DNA of 64,000 nucleotides from a virus (taxonomy: Duplodnaviria > Caudoviricetes). The translations under genes were made by a program, and so were the position numbers. The stretch lies in IMG/VR virus record IMGVR_UViG_3300037067_007554, positions 25,508-89,507 of that record. The stretch is one strand, 5' to 3'. Shown one piece after another: positions 10,678 to 32,480 of the stretch. The notes under the pieces are model-generated. The model saw only the letters and a list, made by a program, of their open reading frames with translations, ran no database searches and was not told the origin of the DNA. Numbering within the stretch: position 1 is the stretch's first letter; each line of letters begins with the position of its first letter.

Positions 10678-13389
10678 GTGAAGCCCATCGTTCACAAGCT
10701 GACTATCGACACCCTAATCCGCTCTGGCAAGAGTTGGCTACAGGGCAACGGCGTGACCGTGCGGAAGGTCGTGGCCTACTACCGCAAGGAGTACGGGCTG
10801 TCTTCCCATCGGGTGAGTCAACTCCGGCGGGGACTGGCGACGAGCTAGGCCCCTGACAACGTGCCGCCAGTGGAGTGCCACCGTGCCGTAGTGTGAGCCG
10901 GTGCGGAGGCTTTCCCCTTGCGTTTCCTTAGACCTGGAGGTGTGACCATGCTCAGCATGACGTGTGAGATTGTGCGCCGGCAAAATGCCCGGCGGGACGG
11001 CCGTTGTTTCCCCTCCCTCAAAACGGTGAGGGAGGCGTTCGAGAGCGACAGCCAGGAGGATGAGAACCGGGAGTACCAGGAGTTCGCCAGCCCGTACTGG
11101 GACCAGGCGAGGGGCATGAGTGACCTGTAGAGGTCCGTGCCGCCAATAGGACGTGATACACCGCCCCGTCAGCGTGTCTCGATACTCTCGCCGGGACGAC
11201 GGGGCGAGGTTTCGTGCCCTACCCATCCCTTGGACTGCGAGGTGTACCATGTGTCTCGGACTGACGTGCGGCCAGATAGCAGCCCTGTGGCGGGGTGGCA
11301 ACCAAGAGGCTGCACCGTACTTCATGGCGAGGTACGGGAGCAAACAGGACTGCTGCAAGGTGGTTCTGGAGGTGTGCCGCCAGGACGGACCGTACTCTGC
11401 GGACTGCTTTGTCCGGGAGTTGGAGAAGCAGTTGGCGCTCTTGGAGGAGAACGCCAGGATCAGCGTAGCGTAGTGCCGCCAGAGTAACCCTATTGGCCCC
11501 GGCTGGTAGGCGGGACTTCACGCCGTTGCGTTTTGCCGGCGGAATACCGATGCCGAGAGTTGAGGTTCGATTCCTCATTGGGCCACTTGTGTAGAGATGC
11601 CCACTCCCTGTGGCGGCCGGGGAGAGGGTCTTAGGTCCATGCCGCCAGCCCCCTACACAAGAGGTGTGCCTGTGCTACTCAACTGCCCCACAACTGCCGT
11701 AACCATCATCAACGCATCGCCGTTGCTCAAGACCTGCGATGAGGCCCAGGACCTCTGCGACCAGGTTGCTTCCTGGCTCTCGGGTGGCGAGAGTTACGAC
11801 CCGGAGTTCCTTGCGGAGAATCTCACGCAGATCGCCATGGACCTCCGACAGTCGATGCAGGAGGCCGTGGCCTGATTGTCGAGGTAGCCCACAAGACGTA
11901 GACTGCGGGGCGAACCTTGCCAGTGTCGTCGCTGGCCGCAGTCCTGTATCCCCATGCCGCCAGGGGGAAGTGGCGGTTCCTACTGAATGCCCTAGAGGCA
12001 GGAGGTATCGCAATGAGTCGTTACCAGATGAGCGATGGGACGGTTGTGGACACCAAGAACGCTACCGCATCGTGGGGTGAATCCACACGATGGGACGGCC
12101 ACAACCATATCAGCGTGGCCACCGGGAGCCAGTGGGAGCACCAGACTCTCTACCGCAGCCGCAAGGGCCGGTACTACGTCGAGCACACGAGCCGGCGGGA
12201 TGGCTCGACGCCTGGTGCCGAGTGGGTGAGTTTAGAAGAGGCTTGCCGATGGCTGCTGGCCAACGAGCACAGCCCCGAGGATGAAAACTTCCCCGAGGAT
12301 CTCAAGGACCACATCGACAAGGTGAGCGAGTAGACACCTCCCAGGAATGCCGGCGTACTGCCAGCCGCCGGCCCTCTGGTACATGTCATGCCCCAGAACG
12401 CTCCAGCAACGCCAGGATTGCGTCGGACGCTGGGCTGTCCAAGTAGACTTGTGCCGCCAAGACGCATTCCTGAGCGTCTGGATCAACGCTAGGGGCGACG
12501 TGTGAGAAAAGAATGCCCGATGGGCGACAGACTCGTATCGTCGTGCCGCCAGATTACCTAGAGTCCCTTACTGTGAGGTGTACGATGCTCGGTTACAGCG
12601 TGTGGTGTGCCTCAAGGGCATACCAAGAGGAGTACGACCAGACCAAACGGGTGGCCGCGTTCACGTTCCTGCTGGACGCCGTGGACTATGCCGCCAGTCT
12701 GGCGAGAAACAGCGTCCGCTGCGTGCTGATCGGCCCTTACGGGCTGGCAACTGAGTACGTGAGAGACGAGACCGATGGTTCCGGGTACACCATCCGGGAC
12801 GCCAACGGGCGGAAGTAGTGCAGTCAACAGGGGCAGGCAATGTCCTTTCGTGCTCTTTCGTGTCTTTTGCTGTCCTTTCGTGTCTTTTCGTGTCCTTTGT
12901 ACCCCTTGGAGGTGTGTGATGGCTGTCAAACGTAACCTGATTCCCCGTCCGGGTGAGGGCAAGGCGTTCGCCTATGCCTATCAGGCTGGGCGAGATTCGG
13001 TGGCTGAGTGAGCCGACCTGGCCGCCGCCCTCCTGGCCTAACCCGCCAGAGTGGGCAGCGAGCGGGCCGACTGAGTGCCCGTGGTCCCTTAGATGGAGGC
13101 GTGGAGGATGACCCCAACCAAAGCTATCGAACACACCGACGACATGATGGGAAAGTTGACGGCCCTGGTCGCCCACCTGCACAACGAAGCCGACGAGGTT
13201 GCCGAACAGTGGTACGGCCTCGGACAGGCTGGCGGACAACGGGAAGACCATGCCGCCAGCCTGTTGACCAGACTTCGCCCCCACTTGGAGGCAATCGAGA
13301 GCTTCGCCCATATCTGCGGACAGCAGATTACGGGCTACGTGAAAGACCCGTTCGGCCGACAGGCGGCGATGGAGGCTCCAACCGTCTGA
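10678..13389 (+). CDS. Eight small early-region genes, each with its own SD: 10678-10848, 10948-11130, 11249-11473, 11672-11875, 12013-12333, 12585-12818, 12919-13011, 13108-13389
   Basis: Each start is preceded by CCCT(T/A)..(G)GAGGT/GGAGG at normal spacing; functions unknown. Confidence 0.65.
12841..12900. repeat. Six tandem 10-bp units, consensus TGTCCTTTCG
   Basis: tgtcctttcg tgctctttcg tgtcttttgc tgtcctttcg tgtcttttcg tgtcctttgt. Confidence 0.85.
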
Positions 13390-21531: not shown

Positions 21532-24500
21532 CGGTCCCCACCTCACCCCGGTGTGGCGCCCGGGGCCTGGCGGTGACCGTCAACGCGGGGGACAGACCTC
21601 CGCACTCGCCCGCTGAGTGAGCGGGAAAAAAAACGGGAGACGAGCCGTGAGAGTAACAATCGACGAACAGGGCCGCGGCCTGCAGATCCGACCAGGCGTG
21701 GACGTGGGCGCCTACGGTCTGGGCCTGGCTCCTGGGGATCGCGTCTGGGTGCCGCGAGCCCAAGCGTGGGGGCGAGTGGTGAGTATCGGGACCCGCATCG
21801 AGAGTGGGACGCCCGGCACCGGGCAAAGCAACCGCGTCCGAGGCGAGGTTGAGATCGAATCGTAGCGAGCCAACTCGCCCGCTGAGTGAGCGGGGCAAGG
21901 AGACGAGAGAGATGATTACTGATGAAAGAATCCGCGACATTTTGGCCCGCTGCACGGTGGACGGCAAACACACATCGGGCGGCGACGGCAAGCTGCCAGC
22001 GAAGGACCGGGGGTTCTGCCCGATCGACGGCGTGCCAGACGAGACAATCGGCGTGCAGCAAGTCCGCGATGCGATTTCCCGTGTGGTTGTGGACGGCCGC
22101 GATGATGATCGAGACATCCTCGACGCAATCGAGGCCGCCTACGATGTGGCGTGGCTCGATTTCTGCGCGCGAGAACATCCAGACTGGGTGCGATCCGCGG
22201 TGGATGACGTGTGCTTCACTGCCTCACTGTCCAACACCTAACGCCCCCAGGCACTCGCCCGGGAGACGCCGGGAAGAAGGAGATGAGACGATGAAATGGT
22301 ACGAGAAAAACGACGTGGTGGCTGAACTGGTCAAGCGATTCCCCGAAGCCGACCCCGGACCCGCAGGGCTGTGGGGATTCGTCAACGCAGGATGGGAGGG
22401 GCCAGTTGACGACAACGACCTGGACAACTGGGCCGAGGCGTGGAAAGACGCCGAGCAGGACTGGGCCGAGGCGTGGAAAGGCACCGGAGGCGGTTAGAAA
22501 CCACCCACCACCAAGCACTCGCCCGCAGAGTGGAGCGGGAAAAGGAAAGATGAGATGACGACCAAAGCGCAACTTGGAATCACCCCCGAGTTTTTGCGAT
22601 TCACGGATGCCGTAGCCTACCTGACGTGGTCTCTGAGCGGGCATCCCCCCTATCCCGCATCGGCGGCTCCGGGCCTGGCGGGGGAGGCGGTCGCCCTGCT
22701 GCCAGCATTTCGCCACTGGATGATCGCCAACGAGTGGGCAATGACGGAGGCTCAGCAACTCCGCGACATCCTCGACGTCCACCCGGAGTTGGGCTATTGG
22801 GACACGACGCCGATGTCGGCTGATGTGTTGCAGGCAATACGGATTTTTGAGTTGTCCCGAGACGATGCTGTCCGATTGCTGGGCGGCTCGCCGTAACCGC
22901 CGCAAGGCACTCGCCCGCAGAGAGGAGCGGGGCCGGCACCGGGTGACGAGGTGCAGGAGATGAGACCATGCGTAAGGTATACCGCACCGTGAAAGAGGCC
23001 CGCAACGCCCTCGCCCTGGACACCGGGTTTGACCCATTCCACACGGGCTACGTCAAAGGACGTTGCACCAAGATCGCTCTCGCGCGGCTCGGCTATCCGG
23101 TAGACAAGAAACTCGCGGAGCAACAGGCAGCCGAGCGGCGACGAAAGCTCCTGACGTCCGCAGAAGCAGAGAGCCTGCTCCGCCCAGTCGGCCGCTGTGC
23201 CAAGGGCCACATGTGGTCCGTGGACCAGCACGGGCGCGATTGCCCAGAGTGTGGCGGACCCGAGATCATGGATATGGAGTGTGACAACGGGCACAAATGG
23301 AAGGCCGCCTACAATGCCGGGCCTGAGTCCGATAAATGCCCAAAATGCGGAGAGTATTACGTGTAGCACGGTCCCCGCCTCGCCCTGGTACTGCCAGCCC
23401 GGGGCCTGGCGGTAACCGTCCGCGGTGGCGCATGACCTCCGCACTCGCCCGCAGAGTAAGTTGGAGCCAAAAAGGGGAGACGAGACGATGGACGCCACAC
23501 ATCATGGCATGACGATTCTCGCCGTGCGCGAGATTGAGACTGGACAAATCGAAACGTATGAATGTCTAAACTACGACACGGCGCGCGCTCGCAGCGGCCG
23601 ACCACGGCAACGATCCCGAGGACTGGGAGCCGGCGGAATCCGCTGAGTGATTTACGGGGTGAGAGACATGGGTAGGCCATCAAGAATATGGACACGTGCG
23701 CAACGACGACTGCTTGGTACTGTGCCCGATGCAGTCGCCGGCGCAAAACTCGGGTGCTGCGCCTCGACCGTCCGAAACTGGCGACGACGCTGGGGGATCG
23801 CCGGGTATTCCGAAGGTCCGCGTTGTACCGCCGTGACGAACGATGCGATCTTCGTTGGAATCTGGTGGTCGAGCGCGAATACTGAGGAGGTGGAAGTCCG
23901 CCTCAATCTCACCACGAGGCAGGTACGCAGCCAGAGCATCCGATTGCGCAGACATGGCGTGGTGCTAAAAGCGATGCCACGGCATCGGCGGCGCAAACCA
24001 ATTTTCTGACCTGCAAATTTCCTGAAACGAGACTCGCCCGCTGAGTGAGCGGGGCAAGGGCAAAAGGAAAACCAAACATGACTATGACGTTGTCCGACAT
24101 CCACTACAGGCTGAACACAATGCAGTCGAGCAAGCAGGCGTTCGACGTGCGAGATGAACTCATCGAGCTAACGCGGATCGTCAGCGACATGCACGCCGCG
24201 CTGGGCGACCTGTCGCGAAAGGTCGAAAGACTCACGGAAGCAGCGGCCAAAGCGTCTTGCCAATGCCCTCTGACTTAGCCCACGAAAACAGAGGTGAACC
24301 ATGCGAACGCGAGAAGAACTCCGCGAGTGGCTGTGCGGTGAGATCGTCGATGTCATGGACAGCTACGATTGCAATGAGGACTCTGCTCGGCAACACATTC
24401 GTGACATGCTCGTCGAGGGGCAGGACAGCTATAGCGACGTGACGGATGATGAGGTGCCGGTAGTGCTACGGCTAATTGAATCAGGAAGGAAAAGCGGCAA

Positions 24501-24619
24501 GAAGGGCAAGACCACCAAGCCCAAGAATCGGCACTCGTGGAATCGGAACTCGTGAAAGAATGTGAAGGAACTCAATACCAAGCACTCGCCCGGGAGAGCC
24601 GGGTAAAGGAGATGAGACG
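21531..24619 (+). repeat. Eight ACTCGCCCG-hairpin leader elements, each 5' of a small gene
   Basis: ACTCGCCCG at 21604, 21873, 22253, 22517, 22909, 23443, 24032, 24584; about 85-bp extended copies start at 21531 and 23368. Confidence 0.85.
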
Positions 24620-25009
24620 ATGAGGATACAAGAGACACGCCGACTGCGGCAGTATGCAGTCTGCCAAACAGCACAAATCCAGGCACCGATGCTGGACCGA
24701 CCCGTGACGCAACCAGAACACTGGAGTGACGAGGCGGCGGAAGCGGCCAAGCGAAGCGGCTATATCGTCTACTTTGCACTCGCAACCACTGGAGAGAGTC
24801 TCTGGGATTTCGAGCGATTCGCCCATGTCCCCATGGAGCACGCTCATCCCGTGGAGGTGCTCGACCACGTCCGAGCCTCAGCTCCGCCGTGGTGGGATGC
24901 AGACTCGGCAATCTACGCTTCGTATCGCGGAGGGCCTTGGTATCCGCGCGATTGGGATGAGGTTCTCGGAAAAATGGAAGTTCCACCCGCAATGGTAATC
25001 GACGAGTGA
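21647..25009 (+). CDS. Cassette-like small genes: 21647-21865, 21912-22241, 22291-22497, 22555-22896, 22968-23366, 23488-23646, 23668-24009 (HTH-like), 24078-24278, 24301-24555, 24620-25009
   Basis: Starts follow the repeat leader or GAGAYGAGAC/GAGGTG; proteins are unrelated to each other. Confidence 0.7.
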
Positions 25010-25066
25010 TAGGGCGTTGTCTCGGGTTGTTGGCAAGGGGATGCCGGATTCATGGGGATCGACTAG

Positions 25067-25497
25067 ATGACAAACTACCAAGAGAAACGGACCATCGAAT
25101 TGTTGGACAGCATGGCGGAATCTATCGTCATGGCGAAGCCCGGCGACCGCGATAGCTTCGTGAGGGCAGTCGCAATCCTGCACTACTTGATCTGGGAGTC
25201 CCGGAAGATTCTCGACCTGCCGGATTTCCCCGGCCTGGACCCCTTGTAAGGAAGTGCTACGGCTTATCCACTCAGGAAGGAAAAAGGAGTAATCACACTA
25301 TGACGAAATCTGATACGATCACAGTTACGCGATCAACGGACGAGGATGCCTCGGCCGTTGCCGCCCGCGCCGCGAAGAAAGCGGGGACGATGGTCGCCGG
25401 CAATTTGCGATGGTACGGTGCCAGGGGGCCAGCCTATCGAGAGGTACCCACGCGCGACGGCCGGACGGTCCGGGTCTGCGAGCCGATGGTCGATTAG
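25067..25497 (+). CDS. Two small hypothetical genes: 25067-25249, 25300-25497
   Basis: ORFs; AAGGAG SD before 25300. Confidence 0.55.
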
Positions 25498-25621
25498 TGG
25501 AATGTCGGCGGTTGCGTGGGCTTGCGTGTTAGTGTCGGTCAGTGTCGGTCAGGTCGGGCGGAACCGGTCCGCAGAGAATCGCTCGGGTATACGAAAACAC
25601 GTAGGTTTGTCCCATCCCTAC

Positions 25622-25649
25622 TTGACAGATGGTTCGCCGGTAGTACAAT
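25622..25649 (+). promoter_or_regulatory. sigma70-type promoter
   Basis: TTGACA-16-TACAAT. Confidence 0.65.
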
Positions 25650-25680
25650 AGCACGACCAGCCAACCAAGGAGCAAGTACC

Positions 25681-25869
25681 GTGGCTATTCTCGATGGCAA
25701 ACACGTACCGCCAGAAAACATTCGACCCTAGCGGCACCGACTCGTTGGCAAGTATCGGCCCCCTGAGCCGCCAATGGGGATGCCGCCAGCAATTGCCATT
25801 CCCCTCTACCATGCCGGCGTGTACGACGAGGCAGTCTACGTCAGCCAGACCAAGGAGCGAGTAAAATGA
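25681..25869 (+). pseudogene. 62-codon ORF with an internal TAG (25729-25731), or a 16-aa leader peptide
   Basis: AAGGAG plus GTG start; the frame continues past TAG to an ATGA overlap with 25866. Confidence 0.4.
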
Positions 25870-26132
25870 GTCCTAGACGACCCGACCCGCCGAGCCCAGG
25901 GCAAGAGTACATTGGCAGGCAGGGAATGTACGCGATACGTTCCCGCTATCCCGACCAGCAGACCGGCGACGAAGAGTTGATCTTTCCAGTCCGCGTTACG
26001 GCGGTGAAGAAACGGTTCGGGCGGCTGTACTTCTTCATCACGCCAGTCGGCGGGGAGAATCACTGGTGGGTCGAGGACAAGATGGTGAAGTTCTCCTGTT
26101 CGGACGAGCCTTCGACCAACGGGAAGGAATAG
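25866..26132 (+). CDS. Hypothetical protein
   Basis: AAGGAG SD; ORF. Confidence 0.65.
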   Translation: MSPRRPDPPSPGQEYIGRQGMYAIRSRYPDQQTGDEELIFPVRVTAVKKRFGRLYFFITPVGGENHWWVEDKMVKFSCSDEPSTNGKE

Positions 26133-26147
26133 GGCAATCCTTTGGAA

Positions 26148-26391
26148 GAATGATTCAAGAGCGAGGAAGTTGGGTAGGCTAAAACACGGCGACCGGCCAA
26201 GTCTGCAAATCGCTCAGAGAGCCGCTGGGCGAGAAACGGACGCAGTACGCCACCGGCTTGTTAATCCGGCAGTCCCAACTTTCTCGCTCTTGAATCAATC
26301 GCCCGGCTGCACTCGGGGAACTAAGGCCCTTAAAGGCTGATTGGCGCTACACACCTCGCGTCTCAGCTACCGTGCAGTCGGGCGTTTTTTT
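26148..26391 (+). ncRNA. Candidate structured RNA: two consecutive long stem-enclosed domains ending in T7
   Basis: 23-bp inverted repeat 26152-26174/26274-26296 and 13-bp inverted repeat 26300-26312/26372-26384, each with one G-U-compatible mismatch. Confidence 0.45.
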
Positions 26392-26401
26392 GGACCATCC
26401 G

Positions 26402-26623
26402 ATGCCAACTACACAAACATCCGCTGACCTCATGCCGCCAAAGGTGCCTCCTCTAGTTGCTACCAACTGGCCAGAAGACATCCAACGACTGGGCGATGCG
26501 ATTGCAAAGTTGTCGGTCGAAAAGGCTCAAGAGTTGAAGGCGTATTTGGAAAGTAAGAAGATCGTGACGCCGGCAAGGGTGACCGAATCATGCAACGGGA
26601 AAACAGCCCCATCCAACTCGTAA
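26402..26623 (+). CDS. Ribosomal protein bL12 (L7/L12) N-terminal-domain-like protein, no C-terminal domain
   Basis: WPEDIQRLGDAIAKLSVEKAQELKAYLE fits the W..DI..LGD.I..L....A.EL..YL pattern I recall for Planctomycete bL12 N-termini. Confidence 0.6.
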   Translation: MPTTQTSADLMPPKVPPLVATNWPEDIQRLGDAIAKLSVEKAQELKAYLESKKIVTPARVTESCNGKTAPSNS

Positions 26624-26916
26624 AGTCTTCCATCAAGGCCCTCAAGCAGGAAGGCTTCAAGGAGGACTCTGGCACGTACAGGGCCCGCCTTCTGTATGCT
26701 CGAACCGTTGTGAAGAAAGACGATAGCGTGGAGATTCAATTTGCCCAACGGTCAACCTTCGACAGGTGGACTAACAGCACAAACTTCCGCGTGACCATTG
26801 CAGCAAATTACAGAGGCCCCGTCAATCTCAAGCCCGCTGTGACACTAGCTCGAAGAATCTGTCGGTCCGGTGTCTTCGACTTTAACACCTACTTTCACAC
26901 CATCGACCTTAGCTGA
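26590..26916 (+). CDS. Hypothetical protein
   Basis: ORF overlapping the previous gene. Confidence 0.6.
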   Translation: MQRENSPIQLVKSSIKALKQEGFKEDSGTYRARLLYARTVVKKDDSVEIQFAQRSTFDRWTNSTNFRVTIAANYRGPVNLKPAVTLARRICRSGVFDFNTYFHTIDLS

Positions 26917-26960: not shown

Positions 26961-28061
26961 ATGACGGTGCAGCCCCTCGTCAATTACAACCGCATCGAGC
27001 CAACGGACGCCTCCCCGCTGCTGGCCCTGCCTTTCGGCGACTTCTCCGGCGCTCTCTATCAGCCGTTCATCGCGTACTCCGTGTCCTATCGCCACACCGC
27101 CGCCCAGCGAACGCTCCCCTGGATTCGCAGCATGAACCGCGATACCTTTCCCATGACGACCGAGGAGACGGTCCGCTGGCTGAAGGAAAAGCACAACGTT
27201 CACGCCAACGGCAAAGAAATCGTCCGATGGGAGGAGGCCGCATTGAACTGGGTTCGCCCGATAGGGACAACGGCCTGGCCGTACATCCGCGTGTCGGAAC
27301 GCAGGTCAAGTTTCAGTGGAATCTCCCTAGAGACGCAGCGAGCGGAAATTGTCCGGTACTACGCCAGACGATTCACGGACGGGACGATCGGCATGGGGCC
27401 TGTATTCTCCGACCCGTCCGTCAGTGCCTCCAAGACAGAGTTCCGCCATCGACGCGGCGGCATGGCCCTATCGCTGCTGATACGACCCGGAGATCACATC
27501 CTTTTTGCGAGACTGGACCGTGGGCTGCGGTCTGTTTACGATGCCTCCGTGTGCTGGCACGAATACTGGCAACCAAAGAACATCACGCCCCACTTTCTCG
27601 ACCTTGGCATCGACCTGACGACGGCCCATGGGCAACTGGTCTTCAACATCATGGTAGCCGTTGCCCAGAGCGAGAGCGATATCAAGTCAGAGCGGATGAA
27701 GGGCATCGTCAAGACGATGAAGGAAAACCACCGTCCCATGGCCTACGCTCCACTGGGCTGGAAGAAACAGGGGCAGGGCAAGAACGCTCGCCTGGTAAAG
27801 GATGAGCCCACACGGGTCATCATGCGGGAAATTTACCGCCTTCGCGAAGAGGAGCACAAGTCCTTCTGGCAGATCAGCGACATCATCGAGCAACGCATCT
27901 GCCAGTTCGCGGGTCGCCTCTACACGAAGTCGGCATGGCAACCTAGGCTGTGGAACTACAAGCGGTGCGAGAAGGCATGGTTCAGGTGGGGCGAGATTCT
28001 TAGGGATGAGTACCTGCGAGTCCCTGCGTCAGAGAAACCGCCGGCGATAGAGGGGAGTTGA
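26961..28061 (+). CDS. Serine recombinase (resolvase family) with about 100-aa N-terminal extension
   Basis: YIRVS catalytic motif, SLETQR, D..VSA, RLDR..R, E...KSER, APLGW. Confidence 0.85.
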   Translation: MTVQPLVNYNRIEPTDASPLLALPFGDFSGALYQPFIAYSVSYRHTAAQRTLPWIRSMNRDTFPMTTEETVRWLKEKHNVHANGKEIVRWEEAALNWVRPIGTTAWPYIRVSERRSSFSGISLETQRAEIVRYYARRFTDGTIGMGPVFSDPSVSASKTEFRHRRGGMALSLLIRPGDHILFARLDRGLRSVYDASVCWHEYWQPKNITPHFLDLGIDLTTAHGQLVFNIMVAVAQSESDIKSERMKGIVKTMKENHRPMAYAPLGWKKQGQGKNARLVKDEPTRVIMREIYRLREEEHKSFWQISDIIEQRICQFAGRLYTKSAWQPRLWNYKRCEKAWFRWGEILRDEYLRVPASEKPPAIEGS

Positions 28062-28790
28062 CTCTTCTTCTGCCCTGCCAGCAAGAACCGGCACCGTCTC
28101 TGCCTCGCGATGGTAGAGGGCATCGGCATCTTCTGCCGTGCGTCCCCAGGGTAGGTCCGGGTACTCAATGATGTTTACCTGGCACGTTACCGTCACCGCA
28201 ATCTGCAAGGGCGAGACGGAGATGATTCGGTCAAGAGCAAGTGCTGGAGGGACAACAGTAACGGTCACTGCCAGAGGATTCAAACTGACAGAAACCGCCT
28301 TGGTAATCGTGGGCTGAACAATAGTTGCTGCGATTAGCAGCGGTGAGACAGAGACCGAAACCCCCACCGCAATCGTCGGAGGAACAACAGTAATAACACA
28401 AGGCAATGCCGCCAGCGAGACCGTCGTGCCTACAGAGACCGTCGGAGGAACGATAGTCGCTTGAATCTGAACAGGACTTGGGGTGACAGTCACCCCGACG
28501 GAGACGGCCGGGGGGACCACGGCGATTGCCAGGGAGACTGCTGGCAGGCCAACCGTGGTCCCCGCCGAGACCGCTGGAGGAACAACTGCAACGGCTAACG
28601 GCATGGGAGGCGACGAAACAGTCACCCCTACCACAATCGCAGGCGGGACTACCGTGGCTTGAATCGCCACGGGGTCTGGTGTGACCGTCACGCCGACCAA
28701 GATTGCTGGCGGTACAACGGTGACCATAATCGCAATCGGGTCAATCCCGAGCGATGCAGTGACGCCAGTCCCAATGTACCACCACCACAT
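28029..28790 (-). CDS. Val/Pro/Thr repeat protein (about 9 x 21 aa), putative virion fibre or decoration protein
   Basis: Repeated ..V.VVPP.V.VG.TV unit. Confidence 0.6.
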   Translation of the reverse strand: MWWWYIGTGVTASLGIDPIAIMVTVVPPAILVGVTVTPDPVAIQATVVPPAIVVGVTVSSPPMPLAVAVVPPAVSAGTTVGLPAVSLAIAVVPPAVSVGVTVTPSPVQIQATIVPPTVSVGTTVSLAALPCVITVVPPTIAVGVSVSVSPLLIAATIVQPTITKAVSVSLNPLAVTVTVVPPALALDRIISVSPLQIAVTVTCQVNIIEYPDLPWGRTAEDADALYHREAETVPVLAGRAEEESTPLYRRRFL

Positions 28791-31985: not shown

Positions 31986-32480
31986 TCAAATAGTTTCAGT
32001 CACCAGGGCCCGGGTTGCATCCAACTGGGCCATGAACTCCTTCGTGTGCGTCTCCCAGTAGCCTCGCATCCAGCGGTCCCGGCTCTTGCTGATCTGCTCA
32101 TAGTTGTCGCCGAGCGGCGTACCGTCGGCACTCCGCTCCACGATGTGCGGGCAAACGCCATCATCCAGCCCGGCAAGGTAGGCCTCGCGCCCGGCCTGAT
32201 ACTCCGGGGTCAAGGTCAACTCGGTGTGGGTGGCATCGGTTGGGGTCACTGGCTCTGAACGGCGGAATGGACTTCTCATTCTCGGGGTCTCCTTGACATC
32301 TTCGCGAATCTTCTGGCTCAACACGGCGGCATCGTACCAGGTGAAACTCAGTTTCGGGTTCGACGCGAATCGCCCCAGGACTCTCAGCGTCTCCGCGCGA
32401 CTGGAGTCGTCGTAGAGAAACACGTAGCGCTCCATCCCCTTGACGAGTGCCAGCACGTTGATCTCGGCGGAAGCGGCCAC
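31986..32480 (-). CDS. Fusion: Planctomycete-type INVLALVKG..YDAAVLSQKIR domain plus Rmf/CrpP-like domain
   Basis: N-terminal conserved motif; C-terminal YQAGREAYLAG....CP....RDRWMRGY. Confidence 0.55.
   Translation of the reverse strand: MAASAEINVLALVKGMERYVFLYDDSSRAETLRVLGRFASNPKLSFTWYDAAVLSQKIREDVKETPRMRSPFRRSEPVTPTDATHTELTLTPEYQAGREAYLAGLDDGVCPHIVERSADGTPLGDNYEQISKSRDRWMRGYWETHTKEFMAQLDATRALVTETI

Follow-up and report, generated by a model that had tools for sequence, protein, structure and literature searches.

A short open reading frame in a viral genome raised the question of whether a phage can encode the ribosome-binding half of the stalk protein bL12 without the half that recruits translation factors. 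Cellular bL12 dimerises through its N-terminal hairpin, and the paired hairpins attach to the C-terminal helix of uL10; the C-terminal domain, or head, recruits IF2, EF-Tu, EF-G and RF3 (PMC4592705; PMC10931766). The reading frame lies in a linear IMG/VR virus record of 89.5 kb, estimated to be 87% complete, of which bases 25508 to 89507, a stretch of 64,000 nucleotides termed the window, were analysed. An initial annotation, made from the letters of the sequence, had proposed that this frame encodes the N-terminal domain of bL12 and nothing further, and had pointed to a likeness to the bL12 N-termini of Planctomycetes. The 73-aa frame was present as claimed, and the string quoted in that annotation corresponded to residues 23 to 52 (W23 to K52). 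The features of the locus are listed in Table 1.

Table 1. Features in and around the headless bL12 gene (positions in the window)
Feature	Position	Strand	Basis or remarks
Structured intergenic region	26148..26391	+	Inverted repeats, RNA fold
Headless bL12 gene	26402..26623	+	ORF list and sequence; ATG start, 73 codons (73 aa) plus stop
Proline motif, residues 10-21	26429..26464	+	Conservation in 12 sequences
Predicted two-helix hairpin, residues 23-52	26468..26557	+	Pfam, hhalign, family-model scores, lineage residues, AlphaFold2
Non-conserved tail, residues 53-73	26558..26620	+	Replaces hinge and C-terminal domain
108-aa ORF	26590-26916	+	No family hit; overlaps end of headless bL12 gene
Serine recombinase	26961-28061	+	Resolvase domain, 3e-16; PHROG integrase, 1e-28

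Relatives of the protein were sought in large protein collections. A phmmer search of 1.84 billion representative proteins returned eight relatives at E ≤ 1e-3 (best, 4e-7), which were 56 to 122 aa long and matched query residues ~1 to 57. A family profile search of 5.8 billion proteins added three more, giving 11 relatives in metagenomes with lengths of 50 to 122 aa. Within the resulting 12-sequence family, which includes the query, the relatives were about 31 to 48% identical to the query. Two blocks were conserved, namely, an N-terminal proline motif and a helical block with the consensus (D/E)-I-x-x-(L/I)-G-D-x-I-A-x-L ... A-x-x-L-x-x-Y-L across the 12 sequences; G31, I34, L45 and Y48 in the helical block and P16 in the proline motif were invariant. 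One relative (P0001) opened with the same MP-T-T/E-Q/T pattern as the query, and the ATG at 26402 is backed by this relative since it starts with nearly the same residues. An alternative in-frame GTG start at 26372 would add 10 residues, and these had no counterpart in the relatives. A model built from the family scored 92 bits on the 73-aa frame, and this was its sole match in the virus record.

Three of the relatives could be placed on contigs of 20 to 71 kb, all with long arrays of small same-strand ORFs lacking Pfam hits, an arrangement typical of phage accessory regions. In these three contigs, the gene directly upstream overlapped the start of the family gene, those upstream genes were mutually non-homologous, and the downstream neighbours were unrelated to one another. 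Apart from the family gene itself, no gene within 8 kb on either side was shared with this virus or among the three contigs. These contexts suggest that the family gene has been maintained independently in different phage backgrounds. As the family is diverged and yet conserved in length and is kept in different backgrounds, we conclude that the 73-aa ORF is a real, functional gene, neither a chance ORF nor a decaying remnant. Other searches yielded no further members: PHROGs gave zero matches for the 73-aa protein and NCBIfam gave noise only, a word-indexed single-sequence search gave no candidate, pattern scans with the back-translated single protein found no relative in viral_contigs or genome_contigs, and the 50,697 phage records searched by tblastn yielded nothing but noise at E ≥ 1. 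No look-alike stretches of the gene or of one relative (P0009) were found among the other indexed genomes.

The relationship to bL12 was examined by profile and single-sequence comparisons. The sole Pfam match of the protein was to Ribosomal_L12_N (PF16320), with residues 27 to 52 aligned to profile positions 2 to 27 of 48. At 14 bits (E = 0.04), this match fell under the curated 25-bit cut-off, so the Pfam check proposed in the initial annotation failed; sub-threshold matches to the same profile were obtained for five of nine family members (best E, 0.0015). The PF16320 hit recorded for genuine Gemmataceae bL12 is, however, likewise only 'weak', and the N-terminus of a genuine planctomycete bL12 found the N-terminal chain of Thermotoga maritima L7/L12 (1dd4_C) only at an E value of 0.33. 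Because genuine planctomycete bL12 also scores weakly, the sub-threshold score is weak evidence against homology. Alignment of the 12-member family to 84 bL12 sequences with hhalign gave a probability of 97.3% and a P value of 2.5e-11 over 39 columns. When the family profile was run against the 5.8 billion proteins, the family members were followed exclusively by full-length bL12 proteins carrying both PF16320 and PF00542, at E values of 3e-3 to 1e-2. A BLASTP comparison of the query with a Gemmataceae-type bL12 (P0013) showed 16 identities in 32 positions (query residues 27 to 58 on bL12 residues 4 to 35), and phmmer with the single query scored up to 24.6 bits on planctomycete bL12. The resemblance noticed in the initial annotation is thus beyond chance, and the homology of residues 23 to 52 (alignments reach residue 58) to the bL12 N-terminal domain is well supported by these comparisons.

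The family model was also applied to whole genomes. In three Gemmataceae genomes of 7 to 11 Mb searched in six frames, the rplL frame was always the top match, with E values of 1.6e-9 to 6e-7. Among a sample of 401 Planctomycetota genomes, 87 matched the model (E = 1e-9 to 1e-4 per genome). The matches that were inspected lay at the N-terminus of an open frame reading as bL12, barring three that fell in a secretin-like protein of 631 aa and were judged spurious, and the rest lay in frames of similar size. Genome matches that reached the proline region were likewise set aside, as they came from full-length bL12 proteins with N-terminal extensions (L115 and L116) or from the secretin-like protein.

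The proposed likeness to planctomycete bL12 held up in a comparison between phyla. The family model scored 26 to 42 bits on 48 planctomycete-type bL12 sequences, whereas 36 bL12 sequences of Oscillospiraceae, Proteobacteria and other groups scored only 2 to 14 bits. Residues G31, D32, A35, A42 and Y48 were common to the phage family and planctomycete bL12, the residues of the other phyla being I, E, K, L and A. The best-matching bL12 (P0013) was 73 to 83% identical to the bL12 of Urbifossiella, Fimbriiglobus, Limnoglobus and other Gemmataceae, and the likeness extended upstream to a W-x-x-(D/E)-I motif found in some Gemmataceae bL12 proteins. The simplest reading of the origin of the gene is capture of the 5′ part of a host rplL, followed by loss of everything after helix 2. 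Planctomycete bacteria are, on sequence grounds, the most likely hosts of the phage. Because no copy of the family gene, as a prophage or otherwise, was found in the 401 Planctomycetota genomes searched, the host link made through the bL12 gene is one of sequence likeness.

A second clue to the host came when 20 kb of the window was compared with these 401 genomes. Positions 32303 to 32465 matched at least 18 of the genomes at 69 to 87% nucleotide identity. This segment encodes the N-terminal part of an ORF on the minus strand (31986-32480; 164 aa), of which residues 6 to 59 (54 residues) were 54 to 81% identical to a conserved planctomycete protein of ~108 to 114 aa. No Pfam family was matched. 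On the chromosome, the planctomycete counterpart sits between a lipoprotein-like gene and a gene for a xerC/xerD-type recombinase (L118, 1471-1797; L121, 1371-1715). As the identity of this ORF to a conserved planctomycete protein reaches 81%, a planctomycete host is supported independently of bL12. By its alignment the ORF is chimeric and gives this phage another N-terminal domain severed from a host protein. The presence of two severed domains hints at a wider strategy in which cut-off interaction domains of host proteins are deployed.

The absence of a hinge and a head, as claimed in the initial annotation, was borne out. Residues 53 to 73 are not rich in Ala or Gly and are not conserved in the relatives, and a six-frame search of the whole 89.5-kb record for the C-terminal domain (PF00542) gave no match with a limit as lax as E ≤ 10, while finding this domain in 12 of 14 control genomes. 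No trace of a C-terminal domain was present in any of the 12 family members. None of the members exceeded 122 aa, and the two members of 122 and 90 aa were longer at the N-terminus and not at the C-terminus; a search for fused longer forms among proteins of 215 to 2000 aa, which provides weak evidence, found none. The end of the cellular domain has been lost incompletely. Residues 53 to 58 of the query (KIVTPA) still align with the 'YxIEPA' start of the bL12 hinge, and the BLASTP alignment extends to residue 58. The relatives stop at or just after helix 2, and several retain remnants of the hinge start, such as YGIE or GIEP. The aromatic-G-(I/V) segment that follows helix 2 in the cellular domain (at positions matching residues 53 to 55 of the query) is partly kept, with two relatives lacking it, and this loosening of the domain end could weaken or change binding. 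The genomic context also differed from that of rplL. Cellular loci have the order L11-L1-L10-L12-rpoB, whereas the phage gene is not downstream of rplJ (uL10) and has small ORFs without assigned functions and a serine recombinase gene as its neighbours. Without hinge, head or operon context, the product is not bL12 proper and is best described as a phage protein derived from the bL12 N-terminal domain.

The proposal that the protein consists solely of this domain was correct as regards the missing hinge and head but not in its implication of a bare truncation, for it had overlooked a conserved motif that precedes the bL12-like hairpin and accounts for roughly one third of the protein's conserved portion. 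This motif, (L/M)-x-P-P-x-x-P-P-x-V-(A/T)-T, has an invariant P16, with P13 and P17 conserved in at least 90% of the 12 sequences. The corresponding columns were gaps in all 48 planctomycete bL12 sequences and in all 36 sequences from other phyla. Since cellular bL12 has no such motif, the phage protein is more than a truncated bL12.

Structure prediction with AlphaFold2, using the family alignment, gave two helices (residues 24 to 36 and 39 to 51) with a mean pLDDT of 72. The bL12 N-terminal domain is V-shaped and consists of two helices (PMC4592705), and the predicted fold fits this arrangement. The proline region was predicted to contain neither helix nor strand, with a mean pLDDT of 80 for residues 11 to 20. 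A complex prediction for residues 125 to 185 of a Gemmataceae uL10 with two copies of residues 1 to 60 of the phage protein, run without controls, gave a score of 0.13 (mark, 0.32), which carries no weight on the question of binding. A Foldseek search of the PDB returned nothing significant, the top rows being chains of a human mitoribosome entry at an E value of 3.1, and a VIA structure comparison gave a Z score of 2.7. These structure searches are uninformative because a two-helix model is too small for them.

The gene occupies an accessory region close to the end of a plus-strand block of small ORFs (24045-26916), and the serine recombinase gene is the second gene after it. This block converges on minus-strand genes, one encoding a Laminin_G_3 domain and one homologous to phrog_644, a family without assigned function; genes for DnaB, RecT-like, RecE-like, methyltransferase and HNH proteins are found further along the window, and the record thus carries phage genes for replication and recombination. 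The recombinase frame extends about 100 residues ahead of the Resolvase domain, so translation may in fact begin further downstream. First in the minus-strand block facing the recombinase gene is a 253-aa ORF (28029-28790) that consists mostly of repeats of the type V-V-P-P-A-x-x-V-G-V-T-V and has no match in Pfam or PHROG. In another part of the window, ARAGORN reported a 91-nt tRNA-like gene on the plus strand (11496-11586) with a four-base anticodon (gcgt) and no amino acid identity assigned. The last 34 nucleotides of the headless bL12 gene overlap the following 108-aa ORF. A programmed frameshift into this ORF was rejected; the overlap contains no canonical slippery heptamer, and the downstream genes of the relatives are unrelated.

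The intergenic region upstream of the gene contains two stem-closed domains, formed by a 27-nt inverted repeat around 99 nt and then a 16-nt repeat around 59 nt, and is closed by a run of seven T residues 11 nt before the ATG. Folding of the RNA gave a free energy of -123 kcal/mol (z = -6.8 relative to shuffled sequences). An Rfam search of the region found no family, and specifically no L10 leader, and the structure was absent from the three relatives inspected, in which an upstream gene overlaps the start. The region may be a terminator or a leader, and its tie to the headless bL12 gene is putative. A miniature transposon was ruled out, the region not being repeated elsewhere in the virus.

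As a host-matched hairpin of this type dimerises and binds uL10 in cellular bL12, the simplest account of the function is entry into the host stalk. During infection, the phage protein would occupy a uL10 site as a homodimer or would form a heterodimer with host bL12. Either route would leave each ribosome with fewer or different factor-recruiting heads, and the altered heads would change the recruitment of translational GTPases. We infer the dimerisation of the phage protein, its binding to the stalk and its effect on translation, and we put the chance that the hairpin enters the host stalk and lowers or alters the number of heads at about even. The mechanisms suggested in the initial annotation, a dominant-negative stalk plug or a disturbance of L10-L12 autoregulation, are plausible candidates. 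Stalk entry is opposed by the conserved proline motif, which has no counterpart in bL12 and which this account of the function does not cover, by the incompletely kept domain end and the PF16320 score under the cut-off, and by the lack of an obvious benefit to a phage of lower stalk activity. The motif would find a role if the hairpin were an anchor on uL10 or host bL12 and the proline segment were a docking peptide, bringing a phage or host factor to the factor-binding site. In archaea and eukaryotes, stalk proteins recruit their factors in much this way, through a short peptide at one terminus. Conservation of the motif equals that of the hairpin, none of the cellular bL12 sequences compared has it and, as expected of a linear motif, AlphaFold2 gave it neither helix nor strand. 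Such docking nevertheless has no known partner and no conserved neighbouring gene to encode one, the failure to find a fused longer form counts weakly against it, and the motif might just as well lie against the hairpin or tighten binding to uL10; we hold this function to be unlikely. We give a similarly low probability to the fuller version, in which the hairpin inserts into the planctomycete stalk as a re-tooled subunit and the PPxxPPxV(A/T)T peptide replaces the head as recruiter. If it were true, there would be bacterial ribosomes with peptide-based recruitment like that of the archaeal and eukaryotic P-stalk.

The remaining explanations place the protein off the ribosome or deny it a function. 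Two-helix hairpins are versatile dimerisation units, and the phage might have reused this one as a generic module with no link to the ribosome, for example, to build a regulator that works as a dimer or to block a host defence protein. This would suit a family in which the end of the cellular domain is gone or loosened and a gene situated in an accessory region close to a recombinase gene. What has been kept, however, are the bL12 residues specific to the lineage of the presumed host, and the host-type surface residues G31, D32 and Y48 are more easily explained by continuing contact with the host stalk, so that reuse away from the ribosome seems improbable. Less probable still is binding to the free pool of uL10 and bL12, which would disturb the repression of rplJL by uL10(bL12)n and shift the levels of the stalk proteins and perhaps of rpoBC. 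In E. coli, it is established that the uL10-bL12 complex autoregulates rplJL (PMC10931766), and in the planctomycete-type contigs examined rplJ-rplL lie directly upstream of the gene for the RNA polymerase beta subunit. This regulation is not known to operate in Planctomycetota, though, no RNA resembling an L10 leader was found near the phage gene, and the effect would be slow relative to an infection cycle. That the ORF is a functionless remnant of a decaying rplL gene, or arose by chance, is very unlikely. Its shortness, its sub-threshold Pfam score and the lack of a Shine-Dalgarno-like sequence standing out just upstream would agree with this; against it, 12 diverged members preserve an open frame of similar size and both conserved blocks, the new motif among them, and do so in different phage backgrounds with no vestige of a head in any member.

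Set beside the bL12 of Planctomycetota (rplL of Gemmataceae and relatives), the phage protein has the same hairpin signature, W-x-x-D-I-x-x-L-G-D-x-I-A-x-L ... A-x-E-L-x-x-Y-L, with about 50 to 55% identity over 31 to 32 residues, but it lacks the hinge and head, lies outside the rplJ-rplL operon, carries the extra proline motif and keeps the domain end only in part. The bL12 domains reported previously from viruses are of the C-terminal type (Ribosomal_L12), are often embedded in larger phage proteins and retain the contact residues for uL11, EF-G and EF-Tu; viruses have been argued to favour exchangeable ribosomal proteins (Mizuno et al. 2019, PMC6375957). The present family is like those cases in being a domain derived from a host ribosomal protein gene, here rplL, in a viral genome, and unlike them in representing the opposite half of the protein, an N-terminal anchor without the C-terminal head. 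The literature searched made no mention of PF16320 or Ribosomal_L12_N and contained nothing relevant on a phage mimic of the bL12 N-terminal domain.

Laboratory N-terminal fragments of E. coli L7/L12 can occupy L10 sites of the ribosome without supporting factor-dependent GTP hydrolysis. Since these fragments can fill the sites and do not support hydrolysis, they provide a precedent for a plug mechanism; they share with the phage protein the hairpin-only arrangement but are artificial and lack the proline motif. Alone among the parts of the bacterial ribosome, bL12 is both multi-copy and exchangeable, and a host-matched phage copy reduced to the anchor would be a natural means of acting on it. 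If the phage protein enters the stalk, phages would have a new means of slowing or skewing host translation, and the gene would allow a genetic approach to the question of why each ribosome has four to eight copies of bL12. To our knowledge, the phages of Planctomycetota have been little studied, and the headless bL12 gene would serve as a host-prediction marker for them.

A second, divergent paralogue of full-length bL12 was observed on contig 312 of one Gemmataceae genome (G003; L117 4351-4764, plus strand). The 137-aa product matched PF00542 (4e-22) and PF16320 (7e-4) and was without the usual Ala/Gly hinge; its gene lies far from the rplJL cluster and adjoins an ORF of 1298 aa.
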